In this document: positions 2,280-22,521 of the stretch, one piece after another
How positions within the stretch are numbered: the first letter of the stretch is position 1
Layout of the letters: each line of letters starts with the position of its first letter
Assembly: GCA_036260075.1 (NCBI GenBank)
Contig: DATAAM010000066.1
Location: forward strand, 4,226-68,225
Direction: 5' to 3'
Origin: Acidimicrobiales bacterium
GTDB lineage: Bacteria > Actinomycetota > Acidimicrobiia > Acidimicrobiales > JAHWLA01
Length of the DNA: 64,000 nt
Made by a program: the position numbers and the translations under genes
The notes under the pieces: generated by a model
The model's database searches: none
What the model saw: only the letters and a program-made list of their open reading frames with translations
What the model was told of the DNA's origin: nothing

Positions 2280-3673
2280 CCGACCGAGCCCTCCATCTGG
2301 AGCTCGATGAGCCGGCTCCACTCCACCGCGTACTCCATGGGCAGCGTGCGGGTGACGGGTTCGATGAAGCCGTTGACGATCATGCTCATGGCCTGCTGCT
2401 CGGAGAGGCCGCGCGACATCAGGTAGAAGAGCTGGTCGTCACCGACCTTGGAGACGGTGGCCTCGTGGCCGATCTGGGCGTCCTTCTCCTCGATCTCCAT
2501 GTAGGGATAGGTGTCGGACCGGCTCTCGTCGTCGAGGATCAGCGCGTCGCAGCGCACGAAGCTCTTGCAGCGCTCGGCGCCCTCCTCCACCCGCACGAGG
2601 CCTCGGTACGAGGTGCGGCCGCCGTCCTTGGAGATCGACTTGGACACGATGGTCGAGGTGGTCTCCGGCGCGGCGTGCACCATCTTGGCGCCCGCGTCCT
2701 GGTGCTGGCCCGGGCCCGCGTAAGCCACGGACAGCACCTCGCCGGACGCCTTCGGCCCCATCAGGTAGACGGCCGGGTACTTCATCGTGAGGCGCGAGCC
2801 GATGTTGCCGTCGATCCACTCCATGTGGGCCTCGGCCTCGCAGCGGGCCCGCTTGGTGACGAGGTTGAAGACGTTGTTCGACCAGTTCTGGATGGTGGTG
2901 TACGTGCACCGCCCGCCCGGCTTCACGATGATCTCGACCACGGCCGAGTGCAGCGAGTCGGACGTGTACACCGGCGCCGAGCAGCCCTCGATGTTGTGCA
3001 CCTGAGCGCCCTCGTCGACGATGATCAGCGTGCGCTCGAACTGGCCCATGTTCTCGGCGTTGATGCGGAAGTAGGCCTGGAGCGGCATCTCCACCTTCAC
3101 GCCCGGCGGAACGTAGATGAACGACCCGCCCGACCACACCGCCGAGTTGAGCGCCGAGAACTTGTTGTCGTTGGGCGGGATCACCGTGCCGAAGTACGCC
3201 CGCACGATCTCGGGGTGCTCGCGGAGCGCGGTGTCCATGTCGGTGAACAGGACGCCTTGCGCCTCGAGGTCCTCGCGGTTGCGGTGGTAGACGACCTCGG
3301 ACTCGTACTGCGCGGTGACGCCGGCCAGGTACTTGCGCTCGGCCTCGGGGATGCCGAGCTTCTCGTAGGTGGCCTTCACCGAGTCGGGCAGCTCGTCCCA
3401 GCTGTTGACCTGCTTCTCGGTGGGCTTGATGTAGTAGTAGATGTCGTCGAAGTAGATCTCCGACATGTCGCCGCCCCAGTTGGGCATGGGCCGGCGCTCG
3501 AAGTGGCGCAGCGCCTTCAGGCGGAGCTCACGCATCCAGTCGGGCTCGCCCTTCATCCACGACATCTCCTTGACGATGTCGGCGGTGAGCCCTCGCTTGG
3601 GCTTGAAGACGTAGTCCTCGACGTCGCTCCAGCCCAGCTTGTAGCGCCCCAGATCGAGGTCGGTGGTGGCCAT
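2276..3673 (-). CDS. sufB: Fe-S cluster assembly protein SufB
   Basis: 465 aa with characteristic SufB sequence throughout, for example [39 protein letters not shown] and [22 protein letters not shown]. Confidence 0.95.
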
Positions 3674-5503: not shown

Positions 5504-6515
5504 ATGCCGGCAGTGCGCACCGAGGTCACCGAGCTGGTGACGGGCCTCGGCATGCTCGGGCTGTCGTCGGTCGAGGCGGCGGTGGCGGCGCGCCCCGAGC
5601 AGCTCCACAACGTGCCAGGCGAGGTGTGGGACCGGGTGGTGGCGGGCGTGGCCGACCGCCGCTACCGCCAGGAGGTGGCCGCGGCCTGGGCCAACGGCCA
5701 GGCGTTCCTGGCCGCGGCACAGGGGCTGCGGGGGCGGCGGCCCCTGCTGGTGGAGTGGCGGGGGCCCACCAAGGCACCGGGCGACGAGGTGGTGCCCGCC
5801 GACCTGCGGGTCGACCACGTCTACCTGGTGAGCTGCAAGTACCTGTCGCGGGTGCTGGCCAACGCCTCGCCGTGGCACGTGTTCGAGCACCTGTTGCGGG
5901 GCGGGCCGCGGGCGCGGGCGGGCGACTGGTTCGCCGAGGTGGCCCCCGAGGCCTACCAGTCGCTGTACGCGGCGGCGCGGCTGGCGCTCCCGGGCGACCT
6001 CGGGCTGCCGCCGTACGCCGCCGACCTCACGCCTGCCCACCGAGCGGTGCTGCGGCAGGCGCTGGCGGCCCGGCAATGGCCTGCGGAGGTGCAGCCCGCG
6101 GCGCGGGCGTGGGCCTGCGAGGTGGCGCGGGCGTCGGCGGCGCGGTGGCGGGCGGCGCTCTCCTCCAAGGCCGAGAAGGAGGCGATGCTGTGGCGGCTGC
6201 TGCGCATCGGCAGCGGCCCCCTACTTCGTGCTGGGCACCGGCGACGAGCGGCCGCTGCGCCTCCGCATCGCCACGCCGTGGGACTGGCGCCAGGCTTGGG
6301 ACCTGCGCCGCTTCGACGTGTGGGGCGACGAGGCGGGCCAGCCGGTGGTGCGGTGGACGGCCGTGGTGCGCGACCGGCGCACGGCCGAGGACCACGGGGT
6401 GGAAGGCCACGTCGAGGTGCGCTGGAGCCACGGCCGCTTCGCGGGCCGGCCCGAGGCCAAGGTCTACCTCGACACCCCCCACCACCGCGTGCCCGGCTAC
6501 GTCACCATCGCCTGA
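5504..6515 (+). pseudogene. frameshifted partner gene of the methyltransferase; candidate restriction nuclease (PD-(D/E)XK-like VDHVYLVSCKY)
   Basis: The frame of ORF 5504.. is protein-like up to ...LWRLLRIGSGP, then turns into Arg/Pro-rich nonsense. The frame of ORF 6228..6515 continues protein-like (YFVLGTGDERPLRLRIATPWDW...). The switch occurs at a C5 run (6217-6221), and deleting one C joins the two parts. The start is 4 nt after the methyltransferase stop. Confidence 0.6.
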
Positions 6516-6554
6516 CCCCCCGCCCCCACTTTTCTCCGCAAATACGGGCCTAGG

Positions 6555-6579
6555 TGTACTGACCACGACCCTTGTTGAC
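6555..6579. repeat. left terminal inverted repeat of the IS481-family element
   Basis: TGTACTGACCACGACCCTTGTTGAC matches the reverse complement of 7573-7597 at 19 of 25 positions. The outer 10 and inner 8 positions are perfect. Confidence 0.8.
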
Positions 6580-6660
6580 AGGAAGGGTCCGCCGATGAGG
6601 TGAGCCCCCGCGGCGAGTGTGGAGCTGTCTAACGGCACCCACTCGCACACGGAGGCTCCC

Positions 6661-7602
6661 ATGCACGGTAACGCCCGACTCACCCCGCTCGGCCGACTGG
6701 CGCTCGTGATGCGCATCGAGTCGGGACGACCGGTCGCCCACGTCGCTGCCGAGATGGCCGTCTCGAGGCCCACGGCCTACAAGTGGTGGCGCCGCTGGCG
6801 CGTCGAGGGCGTGGCGGGGCTGGCAGATCGGCCCAGCCGGGCCCTCCGGTGCCCGCACAGGACGGACCCGGCCACCGAGGCGGCCGTCGCCCAGCTGCGC
6901 CGGGAGCTCAAGCTCGGCCCGGTGCGAATCGCCGCCCGCCTCGGCCTCGTCGCCTCCACCGTGCACCGCGTGCTGTGTCGGCTCGGTCTCAACAGGCTGT
7001 CGTGGCTCGACCGACCCACCGGTCGCGTGATCCGGCGCATCGAGACCACGCGCCCGGGCGAGTTGGTCCACGTCGACGTGAAGAAGCTGGGCCGCATCCC
7101 CGACGGTGGCGGCTGGCGTGTGCGCGGCCGCTCCGCGGAGACCCACCACAGGAACCACCGCGTCGGCTACGCCTACCTCCACAGCGCCGTCGACGCCCAC
7201 AGCCGCCTGGCCTACACCGAGGCCCTCGACGACGAGCGGGCGCCGACCTGCGCCGCCTTCTGGCGGCGGGCCGCCGGGTTCTTCGCAGGTCACGGGATCG
7301 CCGTCGAGGCCGTGCTCACCGACAACGCCTGGGCCTACCGGTTCCGTCGGTTCGCCGAGGCGCTCGACGGGGTCGAGCACCGCTTCATCCGGCCGCACCG
7401 GCCGCAGACCAACGGCAAGGTGGAGCGCTTCCATCGCACCCTGGCCGAGGAGTGGGCCTACGTCCGGCCCTACTCCTCGGAGGCCGAGCGGCTCGCCGCA
7501 CTGGACGAGTGGCTCCACGTCTACAACCATCACCGGCACCACACCGCCGTCGGCGGCCCGCCCATCAGCCGCGTCAACAACGCGGCGGGTCAGTACACCT
7601 AG
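6661..7602 (+). CDS. IS481 family transposase (DDE, integrase core)
   Basis: MHGNARLTPLGRLALV..., HTH region, HVDVKKLG, YLHSAVDAHSRLAY and RPQTNGKVERFHRTL are typical of IS481-family transposases. I prefer the ATG at 6661 to the GTG at 6619. The stop TAG lies in the CTAG junction. Confidence 0.9.
   Translation: MHGNARLTPLGRLALVMRIESGRPVAHVAAEMAVSRPTAYKWWRRWRVEGVAGLADRPSRALRCPHRTDPATEAAVAQLRRELKLGPVRIAARLGLVASTVHRVLCRLGLNRLSWLDRPTGRVIRRIETTRPGELVHVDVKKLGRIPDGGGWRVRGRSAETHHRNHRVGYAYLHSAVDAHSRLAYTEALDDERAPTCAAFWRRAAGFFAGHGIAVEAVLTDNAWAYRFRRFAEALDGVEHRFIRPHRPQTNGKVERFHRTLAEEWAYVRPYSSEAERLAALDEWLHVYNHHRHHTAVGGPPISRVNNAAGQYT
7573..7597. repeat. right terminal inverted repeat of the IS481-family element
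   Basis: GTCAACAACGCGGCGGGTCAGTACA is the reverse complement partner of 6555-6579. Confidence 0.8.
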
Positions 7603-7787
7603 GGCGCCGGATCCGCGAAGAAAACGGTGCCGTCAGGACCGAAGAGCTCGGCGGCCATGGCCTCGGCCGCCGGCCCTTCGTCGGGGCCGCCCACGAAGCC
7701 CGCCGCCCGCACCCCCTCGGTCCGCAATGCCGCCACCCGATCGGCCACGGCCTCCGCATCCGCACCCAGCACGACGACGCCGCTCAT
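7599..7787 (-). CDS. hypothetical small protein (62 aa), translationally coupled to the upstream gene
   Basis: The ATG at 7787 overlaps the TGA of the upstream gene (ATGA). The product is MSGVVVLGADAEAVADRVAALRTEGVRAAGF... Its stop TAG is the CTAG at the IS junction. Confidence 0.45.
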   Translation of the reverse strand: MSGVVVLGADAEAVADRVAALRTEGVRAAGFVGGPDEGPAAEAMAAELFGPDGTVFFADPAP

Positions 7788-8371
7788 TCCACCCCGGCTC
7801 GGCCTTCCACGGCGTCGGCCATCTCGCGCAGCACGAGGGCGGCCTCGGCGGTGGCCTCGGGCGAGCCCCACGTGCCGTCGGGGCGCTGCGTCTCACACAG
7901 CAGGTCGGCCACCCGCTCCGTCGTGGCCAGGAAGGCCTCGTCGCCGGTGACGCTGTAGAGCAGGGCGGCACCCCAGCCCACCCGCCACGCCTCCGGGCCG
8001 TCCCACACGTCGTCGCCCAGCGCCACCACCAGGTCGTGCAGCTCGACGGCGGCGTCGAGGTCGGCGTCGTCGCCCCACAGCTCGAAGGCCCGGGCCAGGA
8101 ACCCCACCGCCGTCCCCAACATGCCGAAGGGCTGCGGGCCCGCGTGCGCCGCCACCACCAGGCCGGGCGCCGCCGACACGCCGGGCACGTCGTCGGGCTG
8201 CGACTCCACCACCGAGCGGCACACCCGGGCCGCCTCGCGAGCCGTCGCCTCGTCGCCCGCGTCCAGCGCCGCCAGCCCGGCCACCGCCGAGCGCAGGTCG
8301 CCGTCCACCACCTTCGGGGCCGCCGAGCCGGCCCGGCGACGCCACTCCTCCGGCGTGGTGACCGCCCGCAC
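7784..8371 (-). CDS. prenyltransferase/terpene-cyclase-like (alpha-alpha toroid repeat) protein
   Basis: 195 aa. The segment AALLYSVTGDEAFLATTERVADLLCETQRPDGTWG resembles the squalene-cyclase/prenyltransferase repeat. The start is GTG. Confidence 0.6.
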   Translation of the reverse strand: MRAVTTPEEWRRRAGSAAPKVVDGDLRSAVAGLAALDAGDEATAREAARVCRSVVESQPDDVPGVSAAPGLVVAAHAGPQPFGMLGTAVGFLARAFELWGDDADLDAAVELHDLVVALGDDVWDGPEAWRVGWGAALLYSVTGDEAFLATTERVADLLCETQRPDGTWGSPEATAEAALVLREMADAVEGRAGVE

Positions 8372-8913: not shown

Positions 8914-10949
<2,036 letters not shown>

Positions 10950-16998: not shown

Positions 16999-17814
16999 GT
17001 GCACGAGGGGGAGGTGGTCGTCGGCGACCTGCGGGTCGCCTTCCTGGAGGAGGGACCCTCCGACGGTCCGCTGGCCGTGTGCCTGCACGGCTTCCCCGGC
17101 TGCGCGTGGACCTGGCGGTTCCTGCTCCCGGCGCTGGCCGAGGCGGGCTTCTGGGCCGTGGCGCCCTGGCTGCGCGGCTATGCGCCGACGGCTGTGCCCG
17201 CCGACGGCCGGTACGGCACGGCGGCCTTGGCGGCCGACGCCAACGGGCTGCACGAGGTGCTCGGCGGCGACGGGCGGGCCGTGCTGGTGGGCCACGACTG
17301 GGGCGCGGTCGCCGCCTACGGGGCTGCCACCACGGCGCCCGAGCGTTGGTCCCGCCTGGTGACGGCGGCGGTGCCCCGGCCGTCCACGTGGGGCACCCGC
17401 TTCCTCTCCTACGACCAGCTCCGGCGCAGCTGGTACATCTTCTTCTTCCAAAGCGGCTTCGCCGAGACGGCGGTGGCGGCCGACGACCTGGCCTTCGTCG
17501 ACCGGTTGTGGGCCGACTGGTCCCCCGGCTACGACGCCGCCGACGACCTGCCCCGGGTGAAGGAGGCGCTGCGGTCGCCCGAGCACCTGGCCGCCGCCGT
17601 CGGCTACTACCGGGCCATGTTCGACCCCGCCGCCGAGGGCGCGCCCGACGGGCCGTTCCCGCAGCCGTGGCTCTACCTGCACGGCGACGACGACGGCTGC
17701 CTGGGCGTCGAGCTGGCCCCGCCCGAGGCGGTGGTGCTGAAGGGCGCCGGCCACTTCCTCCACGTGGAGCAGCCGGAGGAGTTCAACCGGCGCGTGCTGG
17801 AGTTCCTCTCGTGA
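16999..17814 (+). CDS. alpha/beta hydrolase (epoxide-hydrolase-like)
   Basis: 271 aa with LHGFPGCAWTWRF and the nucleophile elbow VGHDWGA. The stop overlaps the next start (GTGA). Confidence 0.85.
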   Translation: MHEGEVVVGDLRVAFLEEGPSDGPLAVCLHGFPGCAWTWRFLLPALAEAGFWAVAPWLRGYAPTAVPADGRYGTAALAADANGLHEVLGGDGRAVLVGHDWGAVAAYGAATTAPERWSRLVTAAVPRPSTWGTRFLSYDQLRRSWYIFFFQSGFAETAVAADDLAFVDRLWADWSPGYDAADDLPRVKEALRSPEHLAAAVGYYRAMFDPAAEGAPDGPFPQPWLYLHGDDDGCLGVELAPPEAVVLKGAGHFLHVEQPEEFNRRVLEFLS

Positions 17815-19199
17815 CGGTGGCCCTGCCCGACGGCCTGGTGGCGGTGGTCAAGCACGACTGCCCCACGTGCCGCCTGGTGGCGCCGGTGCTGGCGTCCCTG
17901 GGCGCCCACCTGGTGTCGGAGGACACCGACGAGGGCCTGGAGACGTCCTTCCACTTGGGCGTGGAGGTGGTGCCCACGCTGCTGCGGGTGGAGGAGGGCT
18001 CGATCGTGGCCCGCACCGAGGGTTGGATGCGGGAGAAGTGGGAGGAGCTCACCGGGCAGTCGGGCCTCGCCCCCGAGCTGCCCGACTTCCGGCCCGGGTG
18101 CGGGTCCCGCACGCTCGACCCCAGCGTGGCCGAGGAGCTGGCCGTGCGCTTCGGCGGGTCGACTCTGCGGTCGCGGCGGGTGGAGATCGCGTCGCTCGAG
18201 GACGAGATGGAGGCCATGTTCGACCGGGGCTGGTCGGACGGCCTGCCGGTGGTGCCGCCCACCGAGGCGCGCGTGCTGCGGATGCTCGAGGGCACGTCAC
18301 GGCTGCCCGACGAGGTGGTGGCCGTGGTCCCGCCCGACCTGGTGGAGTGCACCGTCGAGAAGGTGGCGGTCAACGCCGTGCTGGCCGGGTGCAAGCCGGA
18401 GTACCTGCCGGTGGTGCTGGCCGCGGTGGAGGCCGCCTGCACCGAGGAGTTCAACGCCCACGGCTTGTTGTGCACCACCTGGTTCTCGGGGCCGGTGGTG
18501 GTGGTGAACGGGCCGATCGCCAAGGCCATCGGCATGAACAGCGGCTTCAACGCGCTGGGCCAGGGCAACCGGGCGAACGCCACCATCGGGCGGGCGTTGC
18601 AGTTGGTGATCCGCAACGTGGGCGGGGGGCGGCCGGGCGAGATCGACCGGGCCACCCTGGGTTCGCCGGGCAAGTACACGTTCTGCTTCGCCGAGGCCGA
18701 GGACGGCTCGCCGTTCGAGCCGCTGTCGGTGTCGCGGGGCCTGCGGGCCGGGACCTCGGCGGTCACGCTGTTCGCGGGCGGCGGCGTGCAGGGCGTGATC
18801 GACCAGCTGTCGCGCACGCCGGAGTCGTTGGCGCGCTCGCTGGCCCTGTCGTTGCGCACGGTGGCCCACGCCAAGCTGGCCATCGCCTTCGACGCCATGC
18901 TCGTGATCGCGCCCGAGCACGGCCGGGTGTTCAAGGAGGCGGGCTGGGACCGTGCTCGGCTGGTGGCCGAGCTGGAGGCGCTGTTGCAGCTTCCGGGCTC
19001 GGAGATCGTGCGGGGGGCGGGCGGCATCGCCGAGGGCGTGCCCGAGGTGTTCGCCGAGTCCACGCTGCCGAAGTTCCGCCCCGGCGGGCTCCTGTTGGTG
19101 CACGCGGGCGGCAGCGCCGGGCTGTTCTCCGGGATCATCGGCGGGTGGGCGAGCGGGAAGCTGGGCTCCGAGCCCGTCACCAGGGAGGTGCGTCCATGA
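17811..19199 (+). CDS. thioredoxin-fold (CPTC) N-terminal domain fused to a roughly 370-aa domain I cannot assign
   Basis: The GTG at 17811 gives VTVALPDGLVAVVKHDCPTCRLVAPVL... followed by GWSDGLPVVPPTEARVLRML... The sequence is clean GC3-rich coding. The stop overlaps the next ATG (ATGA). Confidence 0.75.
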   Translation: MTVALPDGLVAVVKHDCPTCRLVAPVLASLGAHLVSEDTDEGLETSFHLGVEVVPTLLRVEEGSIVARTEGWMREKWEELTGQSGLAPELPDFRPGCGSRTLDPSVAEELAVRFGGSTLRSRRVEIASLEDEMEAMFDRGWSDGLPVVPPTEARVLRMLEGTSRLPDEVVAVVPPDLVECTVEKVAVNAVLAGCKPEYLPVVLAAVEAACTEEFNAHGLLCTTWFSGPVVVVNGPIAKAIGMNSGFNALGQGNRANATIGRALQLVIRNVGGGRPGEIDRATLGSPGKYTFCFAEAEDGSPFEPLSVSRGLRAGTSAVTLFAGGGVQGVIDQLSRTPESLARSLALSLRTVAHAKLAIAFDAMLVIAPEHGRVFKEAGWDRARLVAELEALLQLPGSEIVRGAGGIAEGVPEVFAESTLPKFRPGGLLLVHAGGSAGLFSGIIGGWASGKLGSEPVTREVRP

Positions 19200-19708
19200 A
19201 GGTGCTCGACCCGACGGGGGAACGGTCGCCCGCCACCCGAGCCGCCGCTCCCCGGCCTGAGTCGCTCGACGGGCTGACTGTCGGGCTGCTCGACATCTCC
19301 AAGGCCCGGGGCGACGTGTTCCTCGACCGGCTGGAGGAGCGGCTTCGGGAGCGGGGGCTCACGACGGCCCGCTTCATGAAGCCCACGTTCACCAAGCCCG
19401 CGCCGGTCGACCTGCGCCACGAGATCGCCACACGATGCGACGTGGTGATCGAGGCACTGGCCGACTGAGGCTCGTGCACGTCGTGCAGTGTGCACGACAT
19501 CGTGGATCTCGAAGGGCGGGGCGTGCCGGGCGTGTTCGTGGCGTCCGACGAGTTCGCCGAGGCGGCCGAGACACAGTCACGCGCCCTCGGCTTCCGCCCG
19601 CAGTGGGTGCTCGTCCCCCACCCCATCCAGGACCGCACCGACGCCGAGGTGCAGGCCCTGGCAGACTCCGTGGTCGACGCGGTCCTCCGCGCCCTCTCTT
19701 CCCCCTGA
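19196..19708 (+). CDS. UGSC-motif selenoprotein; in-frame UGA (Sec) at 19466-19468
   Basis: Track ORFs ending at 19468 and starting at 19490 share one frame. Read-through gives ...EALAD-U-GSCTSCSVHDIVDLEG... A stem-loop begins 11 nt after the UGA. The ATG at 19196 is coupled to the upstream gene. Confidence 0.75.
19480..19498 (+). promoter_or_regulatory. candidate bacterial SECIS stem-loop for UGA 19466
   Basis: GTCGTGCA-GTG-TGCACGAC forms an 8-bp perfect stem. An alternative register pairs 19472-19479 with 19490-19497. The stem starts 11 nt 3' of the UGA and the apical region contains GU. Confidence 0.6.
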
Positions 19709-19716
19709 CCACCCCT

Positions 19717-19765
19717 GTTTTGGGCACGGTTACCCGCGCATACAGCGGCAAACCGTGCCCAAAAC
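19717..19765. repeat. 15-bp perfect inverted repeat (stem-loop) between the selenoprotein operon and the next gene
   Basis: GTTTTGGGCACGGTT (19717-19731) and AACCGTGCCCAAAAC (19751-19765) are separated by a 19-nt loop. There is no U-tract after the stem. Confidence 0.6.
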
Positions 19766-19781
19766 CGAGGAAGGAGGAGAG

Positions 19782-20678
19782 ATGAAGCAGATTGCACGCA
19801 GGGCACGGGTGCAGCACGGGCTCATCACCCGAGAGCAGGCGCTGGCCGCGGGCCTCGGCGAGGACGCGATCGACCGGTGGCTGGCCTGCGAGCGTTTGGA
19901 GCCTGTGCACAGCAGGGTCTATCGGGTGGCGGGAGTGCCGCAGACGTGGGAGCAGGACGTGATGGCGGCGGTGATGGCGGCCGACGGGGTGGCGTCGCAT
20001 CGTACGGCGGCGCGGCTGTGGGGCATCCACGACGCCGACGAGGTGGAGGTCACGGTGCCGCGCGGGCGGCGCTGCGAGGCGGTCGGCATGGTGACGCATC
20101 GGTCGCGTGACCTCACCCCGAAGCACGTCACGAGGCGGCTGGGCATCCCGGTGACGAACCCCATGCGCACCTTGGTCGACCTGGGCGCGGTGGTGCGGAG
20201 CGACGCCGCGGTGGCCGACGCGCTCGAACGGGCCGTCATCGCCCGCGTGTGCAGCGTCGTGGCAGTCGAGCGGGTGCTCGACGACGTCGCCCGGCGGGGC
20301 CGCCGCGGCGCGGGCGTCATCCGCCGCGTGCTCGACGACCGCGCCCTTGGGCGGGCCCGCCCCGACGGCCTGCTGGAGGCCCGCTTCGCCCGGGTGCTCC
20401 GGGAGCGCAACCTTCCACCGCCGGCCTTCCAGCACCCGGTCGGCCGCTACCGCGTCGACTTCGCCTACCCCGACCTCATGATCGCCATCGAGGTCGACGG
20501 CTTCGAGGTCCACTCCTCCCCCACGGCGATGCAAGCCGACGTCGAGCGCCAGAACCACCTCGTGGCCGCCGGCTGGACGGTCCTGCGCTTCACCTGGCGC
20601 GACGTCGTGCGCCGTCCCACATGGGTGGCGCGACAGGTGGAGCAGCTCCTACGGCAGCGCCAGCGCGCCGTCGCGTAG
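19782..20678 (+). CDS. DUF559 (Vsr-like endonuclease fold) protein with an AbiEi_4-like N-terminal domain
   Basis: A strong SD, AAGGAGGAGAG, precedes the ATG at 19782. The N-terminus reads GLITREQALAAGLGEDAIDRW...RVYRV. The C-terminus reads VDFAYPDLMIAIEVDGFEVH...GWTVLRFTW. Confidence 0.8.
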   Translation: MKQIARRARVQHGLITREQALAAGLGEDAIDRWLACERLEPVHSRVYRVAGVPQTWEQDVMAAVMAADGVASHRTAARLWGIHDADEVEVTVPRGRRCEAVGMVTHRSRDLTPKHVTRRLGIPVTNPMRTLVDLGAVVRSDAAVADALERAVIARVCSVVAVERVLDDVARRGRRGAGVIRRVLDDRALGRARPDGLLEARFARVLRERNLPPPAFQHPVGRYRVDFAYPDLMIAIEVDGFEVHSSPTAMQADVERQNHLVAAGWTVLRFTWRDVVRRPTWVARQVEQLLRQRQRAVA

Positions 20679-21461
20679 GACGGCCAAGCCGTCGGCCACG
20701 AGGGAGTCGGCGGCCCGGCGGGCGCGAGCCGGATCGTCGGGCCACCCGGCGGCCGCCCCCAGCTCCTGGAGCGGGACCGGCCCTCGCCGCATCGCGTCCA
20801 CCAACCGGCCGCGGCCCTGTCGGTCGGACCCCGCGAACGGCGACTGCCGGCCCGCCGGCGCTGCCGGGTCCGGCCCGCCCCGGGCCTGCCACCGGCACGC
20901 CCCCGCCAACGGGCACGCATCGCACCGGGGTGCCCGACGCGTGCAGACGGTGGCGCCCAGGTCCATGAGGGCCTGGTTCCACTGCCACGAGCGGCCTGGC
21001 GGCACGAGCGCGTCGGCCTCCGCCTGCGTGCGCACGCCGAACGCCCGGGCCAGCGGCCGGGCCGTGTTCACGTCGAGCGGGCACACCGGCTCCTCGTAGG
21101 CGAAGGCGAGCACGGCCCGCGCCGTGTACGGGCCGATCCCCGGCAGTGCCAGGAGGGCGGCCAGGTCGCAGGGCGGCGGTGCGCCCGCCAGCGCGACCGC
21201 GGCCCGGTGGAGGTTGACCGCCCGCCGGTTGTAGCCCAGGCCCGCCCACGCCTTGACGACCTCGCCCACGGGCGCCGCCGCGCACGCCGCCACCGTCGGG
21301 AACCGGCCCAGGAACGCCTCGTACTTCGGCACCACCCTGGGCACCTGCGTCTGCTGGAGCATGAGCTCGCTGACGAGCACGGCCCACGGGTCGCGCGTGC
21401 GCCGCCACGGCAGGTCGCGCCGCGAGCGGGCCGACCACTCCAACAAGGCACGCTGCTTCAC
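20649..21461 (-). CDS. mutY: A/G-specific adenine DNA glycosylase (MutY-like, HhH-GPD plus 4Fe-4S loop)
   Basis: Contains LPWRRTRDPWAVLVSELMLQQTQV, LPGIGPYTARAVLAFA and the cluster motif C-x6-C-x2-C-x5-C (CTRRAPRCDACPLAGAC). Confidence 0.85.
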   Translation of the reverse strand: MKQRALLEWSARSRRDLPWRRTRDPWAVLVSELMLQQTQVPRVVPKYEAFLGRFPTVAACAAAPVGEVVKAWAGLGYNRRAVNLHRAAVALAGAPPPCDLAALLALPGIGPYTARAVLAFAYEEPVCPLDVNTARPLARAFGVRTQAEADALVPPGRSWQWNQALMDLGATVCTRRAPRCDACPLAGACRWQARGGPDPAAPAGRQSPFAGSDRQGRGRLVDAMRRGPVPLQELGAAAGWPDDPARARRAADSLVADGLAVLRDGALALP

Positions 21462-21481
21462 CGGGTGCCTACGATGCCGGC

Positions 21482-22024
21482 ATGGCGGGTTGGCTGCGCG
21501 TTGCCGTGCGGTTGCGGGGGAAGCTGCTGCGCGTCCCCACCACCTGGCGCATCCTCGCTCGGCGGCCGCAGGTGCTGGCGGGCCTGTTCGCCATGGAAGG
21601 CGGGCTGTTCGCCGCCCGCTCGGTGCCGCTCGACCTCAAGATGCTGGCCGAGATGCGCACCGCCTCCCTCATCGGCTGTCCCTGGTGACTCGACTTCACC
21701 TCTGCGGTCGGCAGAGCAGCGGGAATCCCGGAAGCGAAGATGCGAGCGCTCCACTGCTGGCGTGACAGCGAGGCGTTCACCCCGCTCGAACGCCTCGTGC
21801 TCGAGCTGGCCGACGCCATCACCGCCACGCCCGCCACACCGCGCCCCGACCTGCTCGACCGGCTGCGGGAGCACCTGAAGGAGCGACAGGTCGTCGAGCT
21901 GGCGATGACGATCGCATACGAGGGATTACGCGCCCGCTTCAACCGGGCCTTCGACGTGCAGCCGCAGCGCTACAGCGCCGAGGGTGCCTACTGCGTGCTG
22001 CCCTCCCACACCTCGTCGCCGTAG
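21482..22024 (+). CDS. carboxymuconolactone decarboxylase (AhpD-like) family selenoprotein; in-frame UGA (Sec) at 21686-21688
   Basis: Track ORFs 21482..21688 and 21740..22024 share one frame. Read-through gives ...MRTASLIGCPW-U-LDFTSAV...WRDSEAFTPLERLVLELADAIT... The family CxxC redox motif therefore reads C-P-W-U. Confidence 0.75.
21700..21716 (+). promoter_or_regulatory. candidate bacterial SECIS stem-loop for UGA 21686
   Basis: CTCTGC-GGTCG-GCAGAG forms a 6-bp stem with a GGUC-containing apical loop, as in E. coli fdhF. It starts 11 nt 3' of the UGA. Confidence 0.6.
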
Positions 22025-22521
22025 GGGCGCATGCGGGGCGGGGCGGCCGCCCGCTTCCACACCATCACCTTGCGGCGGAAGTAGCAGACCTCCTCGCCGT
22101 GCTGGTTGAAGCCCTTGGTCTCGACCGTGACGACGCCGCGGTCGTCCTTCGAGGTGGACTCCTTCTTGTCGAGGACGCGCGTCTCCGCGTAGATCGTGTC
22201 GCCGTGGAACGTGGGCTTCTTGTGCGTGAGCGACTCCACCTCCAGGTTGGCGATCGCCGCCCCGCTCACGTCGGGCACGCTCATGCCGAGCACGAGGGAG
22301 TACACGAGGTTGCCGACGACAACGTTGCGCTTGTGCACGGTCTCGTTCTCGGCGAACCACTCGTTGGTGTGCAACGGGTGGTGGTTCATCGTGATCATGC
22401 AGAAGAGGTGGTCGTCGTACTCGGTGATCGTCTTGCCCGGCCAGTGCTTGTAGACGTCGCCCACCTCGAAATCCTCGAAGTAGCGGCCGAACGGGCGGTC
22501 GTGCACGGTCATGTGCGGCAT
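21988..22521 (-). CDS. MaoC family (R)-specific enoyl-CoA hydratase/dehydratase
   Basis: 177 aa hot-dog fold: FEDFEVGDVYKHWPGKTITEYDDHLFCMITMNHHPLHTN... Confidence 0.85.
   Translation of the reverse strand: MPHMTVHDRPFGRYFEDFEVGDVYKHWPGKTITEYDDHLFCMITMNHHPLHTNEWFAENETVHKRNVVVGNLVYSLVLGMSVPDVSGAAIANLEVESLTHKKPTFHGDTIYAETRVLDKKESTSKDDRGVVTVETKGFNQHGEEVCYFRRKVMVWKRAAAPPRMRPYGDEVWEGSTQ

Follow-up and report, generated by a model that had tools for sequence, protein, structure and literature searches.

The stretch of Acidimicrobiales DNA analysed here (64,000 nucleotides, hereafter the window) carries on its forward strand a gene of the AhpD/carboxymuconolactone decarboxylase (CMD) superfamily whose reading frame is interrupted by a TGA codon. 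Translation of 21482-22024 gave one internal stop, the TGA at 21686-21688, and the list of open reading frames (ORFs) splits the gene into 21482..21688 (68 aa) and 21740..22024 (94 aa), which lie in a common frame. The preceding sequence-only reading had assigned the two ORFs to one frame, separated by an in-frame UGA at 21686, and upon retranslation both its coordinates and its description proved correct. Around the TGA the residues read ...MRTASLIGCPW-[TGA]-LDFTSAVGRAAG..., and the features assigned to the gene are the following (Sec, selenocysteine; SECIS, Sec insertion sequence):

21482..22024, forward strand: predicted selenoprotein coding sequence, 180 residues including Sec69, stop codon TAG at 22022-22024, AhpD/CMD superfamily
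21677..21688, forward strand: predicted redox motif Cys66-Pro-Trp-Sec69, with the Sec codon UGA at 21686-21688
21700..21716, forward strand: SECIS-like hairpin CTCTGC-GGTCG-GCAGAG, 6-bp stem CUCUGC/GCAGAG, 5-nt loop GGUCG

We are highly confident that 21482..22024 is one gene encoding an AhpD/CMD-superfamily protein and that its UGA genuinely encodes Sec. As an ordinary stop, UGA is more frequent in the window than either of the other two codons and terminates 28 of the 41 predicted genes. The recoding is therefore local, with no change of the genetic code, and a genome-wide reassignment of UGA was rejected.

For profile matching, the TGA of the 180-residue product was replaced by Cys. The read-through product matched Pfam PF02627 (CMD/AhpD) with 34.4 bits (cut-off 23), residues 29-111 covering profile positions 1-83 of 84; this match crosses the TGA, in agreement with the earlier proposal that the product fits the CMD/AhpD profile. 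A search of the family profile against solved structures found PA0269 (2O4D/2IJC/7XW1), Atu0492 (2GMY) and Bmp8 (6OHI), whose G-C-x-[YF]-C corresponds at every column to the G-C-P-W-U of the window protein. A single CMD domain extends across the TGA, the alignment to these single-chain PDB proteins is gapless, and the Cys-x-x-Cys pair of AhpD is present as Cys66-x-x-Sec69. The sequence-only reading had taken the TGA for the second Cys of this CxxC motif and had expected homologues with Cys at the U column; both were borne out by the PDB alignments and by 68 Cys-form homologues, and three genome loci carry Cys as well. The solved structures closest by sequence, at E about 1e-18 with the family profile, are those of Mycobacterium tuberculosis AhpD, PA0269 (2O4D/2IJC) and Atu0492 (2GMY), with the motif G-C-x-[YFW]-C.

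Among the NCBIfam models, NF053654 ('GroundWater_YciW, YciW-related (seleno)protein'), which likewise describes (seleno)proteins of YciW/AhpD type, scored best; it matched residues 24-163 of 180 with E = 7e-26. The score of 91 bits lies below the equivalog cut-off of 310, which places the window protein in a sister clade of NF053654 and not in the family itself. The score against TIGR01926 (peroxidase-related enzyme) was 28.1 bits, below the cut-off of 81.8, and NF041047 and NF041238 did not match the window protein. No NCBIfam selenoprotein model captures the CMD clade at its cut-off.

We also asked how the UGA column behaves among relatives, using a genome scan with one genome per bacterial species. 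This yielded 465 loci with relatives, and the counts were taken from the best 80: 77 have TGA and three have Cys (L057, L060 and L063). At no point was the column occupied by TAA or TAG in the relatives. The host taxa span at least six phyla (Actinomycetota, Acidobacteriota, Myxococcota, Gemmatimonadota, Chloroflexota, Planctomycetota and others) and include the isolate Pseudonocardia acaciae DSM 45401; the best match to the gene in the genome collection, with 56% identity, came from metagenome-assembled genomes (MAGs) of Acidimicrobiia. Among 5.8 billion clusters, the nine proteins most similar to the product (43-83% identity) are without exception C-terminal fragments of 99-107 residues that start just past the TGA column. 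On their contigs, however, the frame extends upstream through the TGA in all nine metagenomic relatives (9/9) with the pattern GC[PVT][WF]-TGA-[LMI]D, and a conserved N-terminal half lies upstream of the TGA on every contig fetched. Full-length similarity on either side of the TGA was likewise found in L001-L003 and L006-L010. A HMMER search with the C-terminal part returned 1005 relatives at E <= 0.001, and the top 150 of these cluster representatives comprise 58 short stubs and 68 proteins with C-x-x-C at the homologous site.

Compared with its 83% identical relative L001, which likewise has TGA at the Sec column, the gene has a ratio of non-synonymous to synonymous substitutions (dN/dS) of 0.29 upstream of the TGA (68 codons) and 0.28 downstream of it (111 codons), at dS values of 0.3-0.5. 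These ratios indicate that both halves are kept as protein under equal purifying selection.

Across the 85 Sec-form sequences compared, the U column is TGA in 85/85, and G65, C66 and D71 are invariant. The clade can be recognised by the signature G-C-x-[WF]-U-x-D ... W-E-N-x-R-A-R-F-N, and further invariant or nearly invariant residues are Glu39, Lys53, Asp71, Glu103, Glu139 and the W-E-N-x-R-A-R-F-N segment at 146-154. In AhpD-like proteins, a His four residues after the second Cys (His137/His55) has been reported as invariant (PMC3141380). The corresponding position is Thr73 in the window protein, and among the 85 Sec forms it is occupied by Gly in 59, Asn in 17 and His in 4. In AhpD and PA0269, a relay Glu (Glu118/Glu36) precedes the first Cys by 12 residues; the window protein has Met54 there, and the clade varies at this column (Ala 27, Glu 16, Thr 9). 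As the Cys forms sampled also have Gly at the relay His position, the loss is a property of the clade and not only of Sec use. The AhpD-like identity put forward by the sequence-only reading therefore stands with respect to the superfamily and the CxxU motif, but the protein is not a canonical AhpD, since the relay His is missing. The gamma-carboxymuconolactone decarboxylase family is without CxxC (PMC3141380), and the predicted CxxU redox pair argues for the AhpD-like branch over the decarboxylase branch.

The hairpin starts exactly 11 nt after the UGA and lies within codons 73-79 of the coding sequence (T-S-A-V-G-R-A), at the position and spacing that had been claimed. In a gapless alignment of the 48 nt from the TGA in the 85 Sec-form sequences, columns 15-20 and 26-31 form standard pairs in nearly all of them. 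Pair 15-31 is CG in 57 sequences, UA in 14, GC in 2 and AU in 1; pair 16-30 is UA in 68 and UG in 13 and also occurs as AU, GC and GU; pair 18-28 is UA in 80 and GC in 3. Three pairs are changed on both sides, none of 500 shuffles reached the observed covariation score, and pairing dropped from 88% to 31-52% when the partner was slid by 1-3 columns. A seventh pair, 14-32, is unsupported (25/85 sequences), and the alignment shows no lower stem that is conserved. The loop sequences are CGUGG, CGUCG, CGUGA and GGUCG, with G-U at positions 2-3 in at least 90% of cases. A SECIS-like element conserved in register and with covariation is thus present where the sequence-only reading had placed it.

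The upper stem-loop of the fdhF SECIS of Escherichia coli K-12, GGUUGCA-GGUC-UGCACC, also begins 11 nt past the UGA. Its loop GGUC and the GGUCG of the window both have G-U at positions 2-3, and the common loop core that had been noted before is confirmed by the K-12 sequence. The fdhF upper stem-loop at this 11-nt spacing represents the minimal SelB-binding element, and the G-U of its loop are critical bases. The window hairpin differs from that of fdhF in its bare 6-bp stem, its 5-nt loop and the lack of a bulged U.

The codons and residues of the hairpin show a corresponding pattern. Among the Sec forms, the stem codons are UCU for Ser in 81/86 and AGA/AGG for Arg in 82/86; in the window genes, UCU accounts for 1.4% of the Ser codons and AGA for 0.9% of the Arg codons. 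The peptide S-A-V-[GS]-R occurs in 73/86 Sec forms, compared to 0/68 Cys forms, in which these positions vary freely. That the hairpin peptide and codons are kept only in Sec forms is the expected signature of a constraint at the RNA level that is tied to the UGA. Folded alone, the hairpin is of modest stability (-9.5 kcal/mol, z = -2.2).

A few individual relatives deviate from the common state. At L063 and L060 (both Cys, TGC; at 10193-10226 and about 10190, respectively), the S-A-V-G-R/hairpin sequence is lost. L057 from Dehalococcoidia (Cys, TGC; 3621-3654) has kept a 7-bp stem with a loop, GCUGA, that lacks the G-U, a state that would fit a recent Sec-to-Cys conversion. The database homologue P0093 (175 aa) reads G-C-P-F-W-L-D-L-G-S-A-V-G-R, with Trp at the Sec column; this is most likely due to a gene caller using a code with UGA as Trp, a further route to mis-annotation.

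A second predicted selenoprotein gene is located 2.2 kb upstream of the CMD gene, with the following features:

19196..19708, forward strand: predicted UGSC-family selenoprotein gene, 170 residues, Sec92 at TGA 19466-19468, motif U-G-S-C
19480..19498, forward strand: SECIS-like hairpin of the UGSC gene, 8-bp stem GUCGUGCA/UGCACGAC, loop GUG, 11 nt after the UGA

The motif of this protein reads ...EALAD-U-G-S-C-T-S-C... in context. Its read-through product matched PF24696 with 162.3 bits (cut-off 25) over profile positions 1-171 of 172, compared to 64 bits and positions 1-92 for the product truncated at the TGA, and it belongs to NF041046, 'UGSC family (seleno)protein', with 157.7 bits (cut-off 125). 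The hairpin (-12.4 kcal/mol, z = -2.8) was found independently by a spacing scan. Among the in-frame TGAs of the window with coding-like flanks, a hairpin of at least 6 bp exactly 11 nt downstream occurs only at 21686 and 19466, each of them in a known selenoprotein family. A broader scan of in-frame TGAs turned up no further convincing selenoprotein gene. At other loci, no UGSC gene adjoins the CMD orthologues; the proximity of the two genes is therefore not a conserved operon. Because this second selenoprotein gene, with a hairpin of its own, lies in the window, the genome very probably decodes Sec.

Genes for the Sec machinery were found close to orthologues elsewhere. In five genomes, selD or selB lies 2-7 kb from the CMD orthologue (selD at L037, L072, L074 and L081; selB at L089), and these loci belong to MAGs of Spirochaetales, Myxococcota/'Deltaproteobacteria' and Acidobacteriota. 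At L089, selB occupies 6304-8202, and a weaker selD-like match occurs at 17258-17899. ARAGORN detected no tRNA-Sec in 60 related loci (L011-L070). At the Cys-form locus L063, selD was seen at the locus edge.

With regard to the remaining surroundings, the CMD gene is tightly flanked on both sides. A divergent gene for an HhH-GPD DNA glycosylase (20649..21461, reverse strand) leaves only 20 nt (21462-21481) to the start of the selenoprotein gene, with scant room for a leader or Shine-Dalgarno sequence, and a convergent MaoC/mesaconyl-CoA-hydratase-like gene (21988..22521, reverse strand) overlaps its last 37 nt with its 3' end. Between the two selenoprotein genes lies a DUF559/MTES_1575 endonuclease-like ORF (19488-20678, forward strand), which probably begins at MKQIARRARV..., well past the first start codon in frame, in which case no overlap with the UGSC gene is required. 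Upstream of the latter, an ORF of about 460 residues (about 17814-19199, forward strand) shares 4 nt (ATGA) at the UGSC start codon, an arrangement suggestive of translational coupling. Its N-terminal stretch is thioredoxin-like and contains C-P-T-C (TIGR01068 gave 22.7 bits, far short of its cut-off), and no Pfam family matched beyond this stretch; its product may serve the UGSC selenoprotein as a redox partner. When the ORFs within 4.5 kb of the gene were clustered in about 85 loci, no partner conserved across phyla was found; once the gene and its antisense shadow were set aside, none of the clusters covered more than 11 loci.

The sequence evidence establishes one gene with UGA at the second CxxC position, a covarying hairpin at SECIS spacing, and Sec as well as Cys forms of the family. 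Several observations weigh against reading it as a functional selenoprotein of the proposed kind. Similarity to selA, selB or selD was absent from the 64-kb window in tblastn searches with E. coli SelA, SelB and SelD, and ARAGORN predicted no tRNA, hence no tRNA-Sec, in the window, in line with the lack of an Rfam match. The hairpin is short, with 6 bp and without the bulged U of fdhF, and gave no Rfam match when the whole window was searched at gathering thresholds; at E <= 10, a search of 19400-21800 returned chance matches to miRNAs and snoRNAs only, and neither of the two hairpins was matched. The 65 nt following the UGA are not unusually stable (z = 0.18). Fold energy by itself is therefore no evidence, and it is the comparative data that single the hairpin out. 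In addition, Tyr146 and Gly148 of the window protein replace the Trp and Asn found in nearly all other members, and a peroxidase-type chemistry is suggested by distant CxxC relatives alone and is weak even in PA0269.

The state of the locus could also result from a pseudogene or from a sequencing or assembly error, such that an ancestral TGC codon for Cys reads TGA in this genome only. The two codons are one base apart, Cys forms of the family exist, and the window shows no Sec machinery. However, the TGA recurs at this column in 77 of 80 genome loci and in every one of the 9 metagenome loci, across many phyla and in independent assemblies, the window possesses the Sec-form-specific hairpin built from rare codons (UCU, AGA), and the part downstream of the TGA has a dN/dS of 0.28 against a relative that itself has the TGA. 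We thus rate such an explanation as very improbable, and the possibility raised in the sequence-only reading that resequencing would turn the TGA into a sense codon is correspondingly improbable. An arrangement of two separate small genes, one of 68 aa ending at the TGA and one of 94 aa starting from the ATG at 21740, had been named there as well. Gene callers annotate every relative in this way, and the ATG does exist in the window. Yet all relatives conserve the protein sequence encoded by the 17 codons from the TGA to this ATG (LD[FI]xSAVGRAAG...), the relatives have no consistent start codon (the called starts are GTG or ATG at differing positions), one CMD domain bridges the junction without gaps relative to single-chain PDB proteins, and the full-length Cys forms are single proteins. 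As the orthologues keep both the TGA and the coding sequence on its two sides, we assign next to no probability to two genes. Because independent assemblies show Sec and Cys alternating at the redox motif, a private nonsense mutation, a sequencing error and a two-gene layout are all excluded.

A further explanation accepts the read-through but not, or not only, the insertion of Sec: Cys might be inserted via tRNA-Sec at low selenium, or Trp or Cys by near-cognate decoding aided by the hairpin. In its favour, the insertion of Sec is a prediction from the sequence, and the homologue P0093 has been translated with Trp (GCPFWLD), most likely by UGA=Trp gene calling as described above. Against it, the geometry of the hairpin, with its 11-nt spacing and the G-U in the loop, is that of a SelB-dependent SECIS, and alternation between Sec and Cys at a CxxC redox site characterises selenoproteins. 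Sec-machinery genes near orthologues in five genomes and the UGSC selenoprotein gene nearby point in the same direction, and we consider this explanation very improbable.

If UGA-21686 is decoded as Sec, the bacterial Sec pathway would suggest that the 17-nt hairpin 11 nt past this codon recruits the complex of SelB, GTP and Sec-tRNA(Sec) to the ribosome. The UGA in the A site would then be read as Sec69 and not as a stop. In PA0269, the CxxC pair has been placed in helix H4 of a conserved two-helix active-site motif, and in this protein as well as in M. tuberculosis AhpD the two cysteines work together with a Glu/His/water proton relay (PMC3141380). Cys66-x-x-Sec69 aligns to the CxxC position of PA0269. 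By analogy to AhpD, Sec69 would stand in place of the attacking second cysteine and could undergo a selenenylsulfide cycle with Cys66, and the protein may act as a thiol- or selenol-dependent reductase of peroxides, oxidised peroxiredoxin or another electrophile. PA0269 itself is only a weak peroxidase (PMC3141380). The use of Sec may also explain why the loss of the His/Glu relay is tolerated in the clade, because a selenol is ionised at neutral pH and a general base may be unneeded.

AhpD-like proteins with a CxxU motif are a known class of selenoproteins, as the sequence-only reading had stated. In the Sargasso Sea study of 2005, Zhang and Gladyshev described a CxxU 'AhpD-like protein' (COG2128) and a 'CMD domain-containing protein' (PF02627), and the Global Ocean Sampling (GOS) survey of 2008 by the same authors listed 'AhpD-like 1' (COG2128) and 'AhpD-like 2' (pfam02627). 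AhpD-like and CMD-like CxxU classes are also listed in a review and in a selenoprotein database, both of 2026; the review assigns TIGR01926 to the 'AhpD-like protein' selenoproteins and links NF041047 and NF041238 to these classes as well. The window gene shares with these classes the PF02627 domain, the C-x-x-U motif with Sec for the second Cys, the coexistence of Cys homologues, and a SECIS hairpin directly downstream with a G in a small apical loop. 'AhpD-like 2' has been reported to be commoner in non-marine samples, which is in keeping with the MAG taxa found here; this likeness of the window clade to 'AhpD-like 2' is one of class description, not of published sequences. The clade differs from AhpD and PA0269 in being without the relay His and Glu and in having Sec in place of the second Cys. 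Bmp8, the tetrabromopyrrole debrominase (6OHI/6OHJ), is a further superfamily member (the profile detects it with E = 2e-13, and its G-C-M-Y-C corresponds to G-C-P-W-U) and exemplifies a scaffold that is capable of thiol-based reductive chemistry besides peroxide reduction. The similarity to Bmp8 is distant, and nothing near the window gene points to genes for halogenated substrates.

The window gene thus adds a member to an already known kind of CxxU selenoprotein. As judged from the sequences compared, the clade appears to go beyond what has been catalogued, as it is not captured at the NCBIfam cut-offs, is almost entirely of the Sec form among the best 80 loci, lacks the relay His and is truncated in public gene calls. 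It may even represent a distinct CMD-superfamily selenoprotein clade without a curated model, mostly Sec-containing, relay-free, occurring in at least six phyla and equipped with a near nucleotide-invariant minimal SECIS of 17 nt; we put this forward tentatively and regard it as possible rather than probable. If true, the substrate and chemistry of the clade could differ from AhpD-type peroxide defence, and its hairpin would be a compact natural SECIS that is recognised by very divergent SelB proteins.

Since gene callers split every member of the clade in two, protein databases reveal neither the size of the family nor its dependence on selenium. The about 85 sequences from different phyla provide a well-sampled minimal in-frame SECIS, whose codon constraints can be read against Cys-form controls, and the clade would offer an AhpD-like scaffold without the proton-relay His in which Sec is used. 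With two predicted selenoprotein genes within 2.3 kb, the genome of this bacterium, at 72% G+C, is very probably that of a selenium user.

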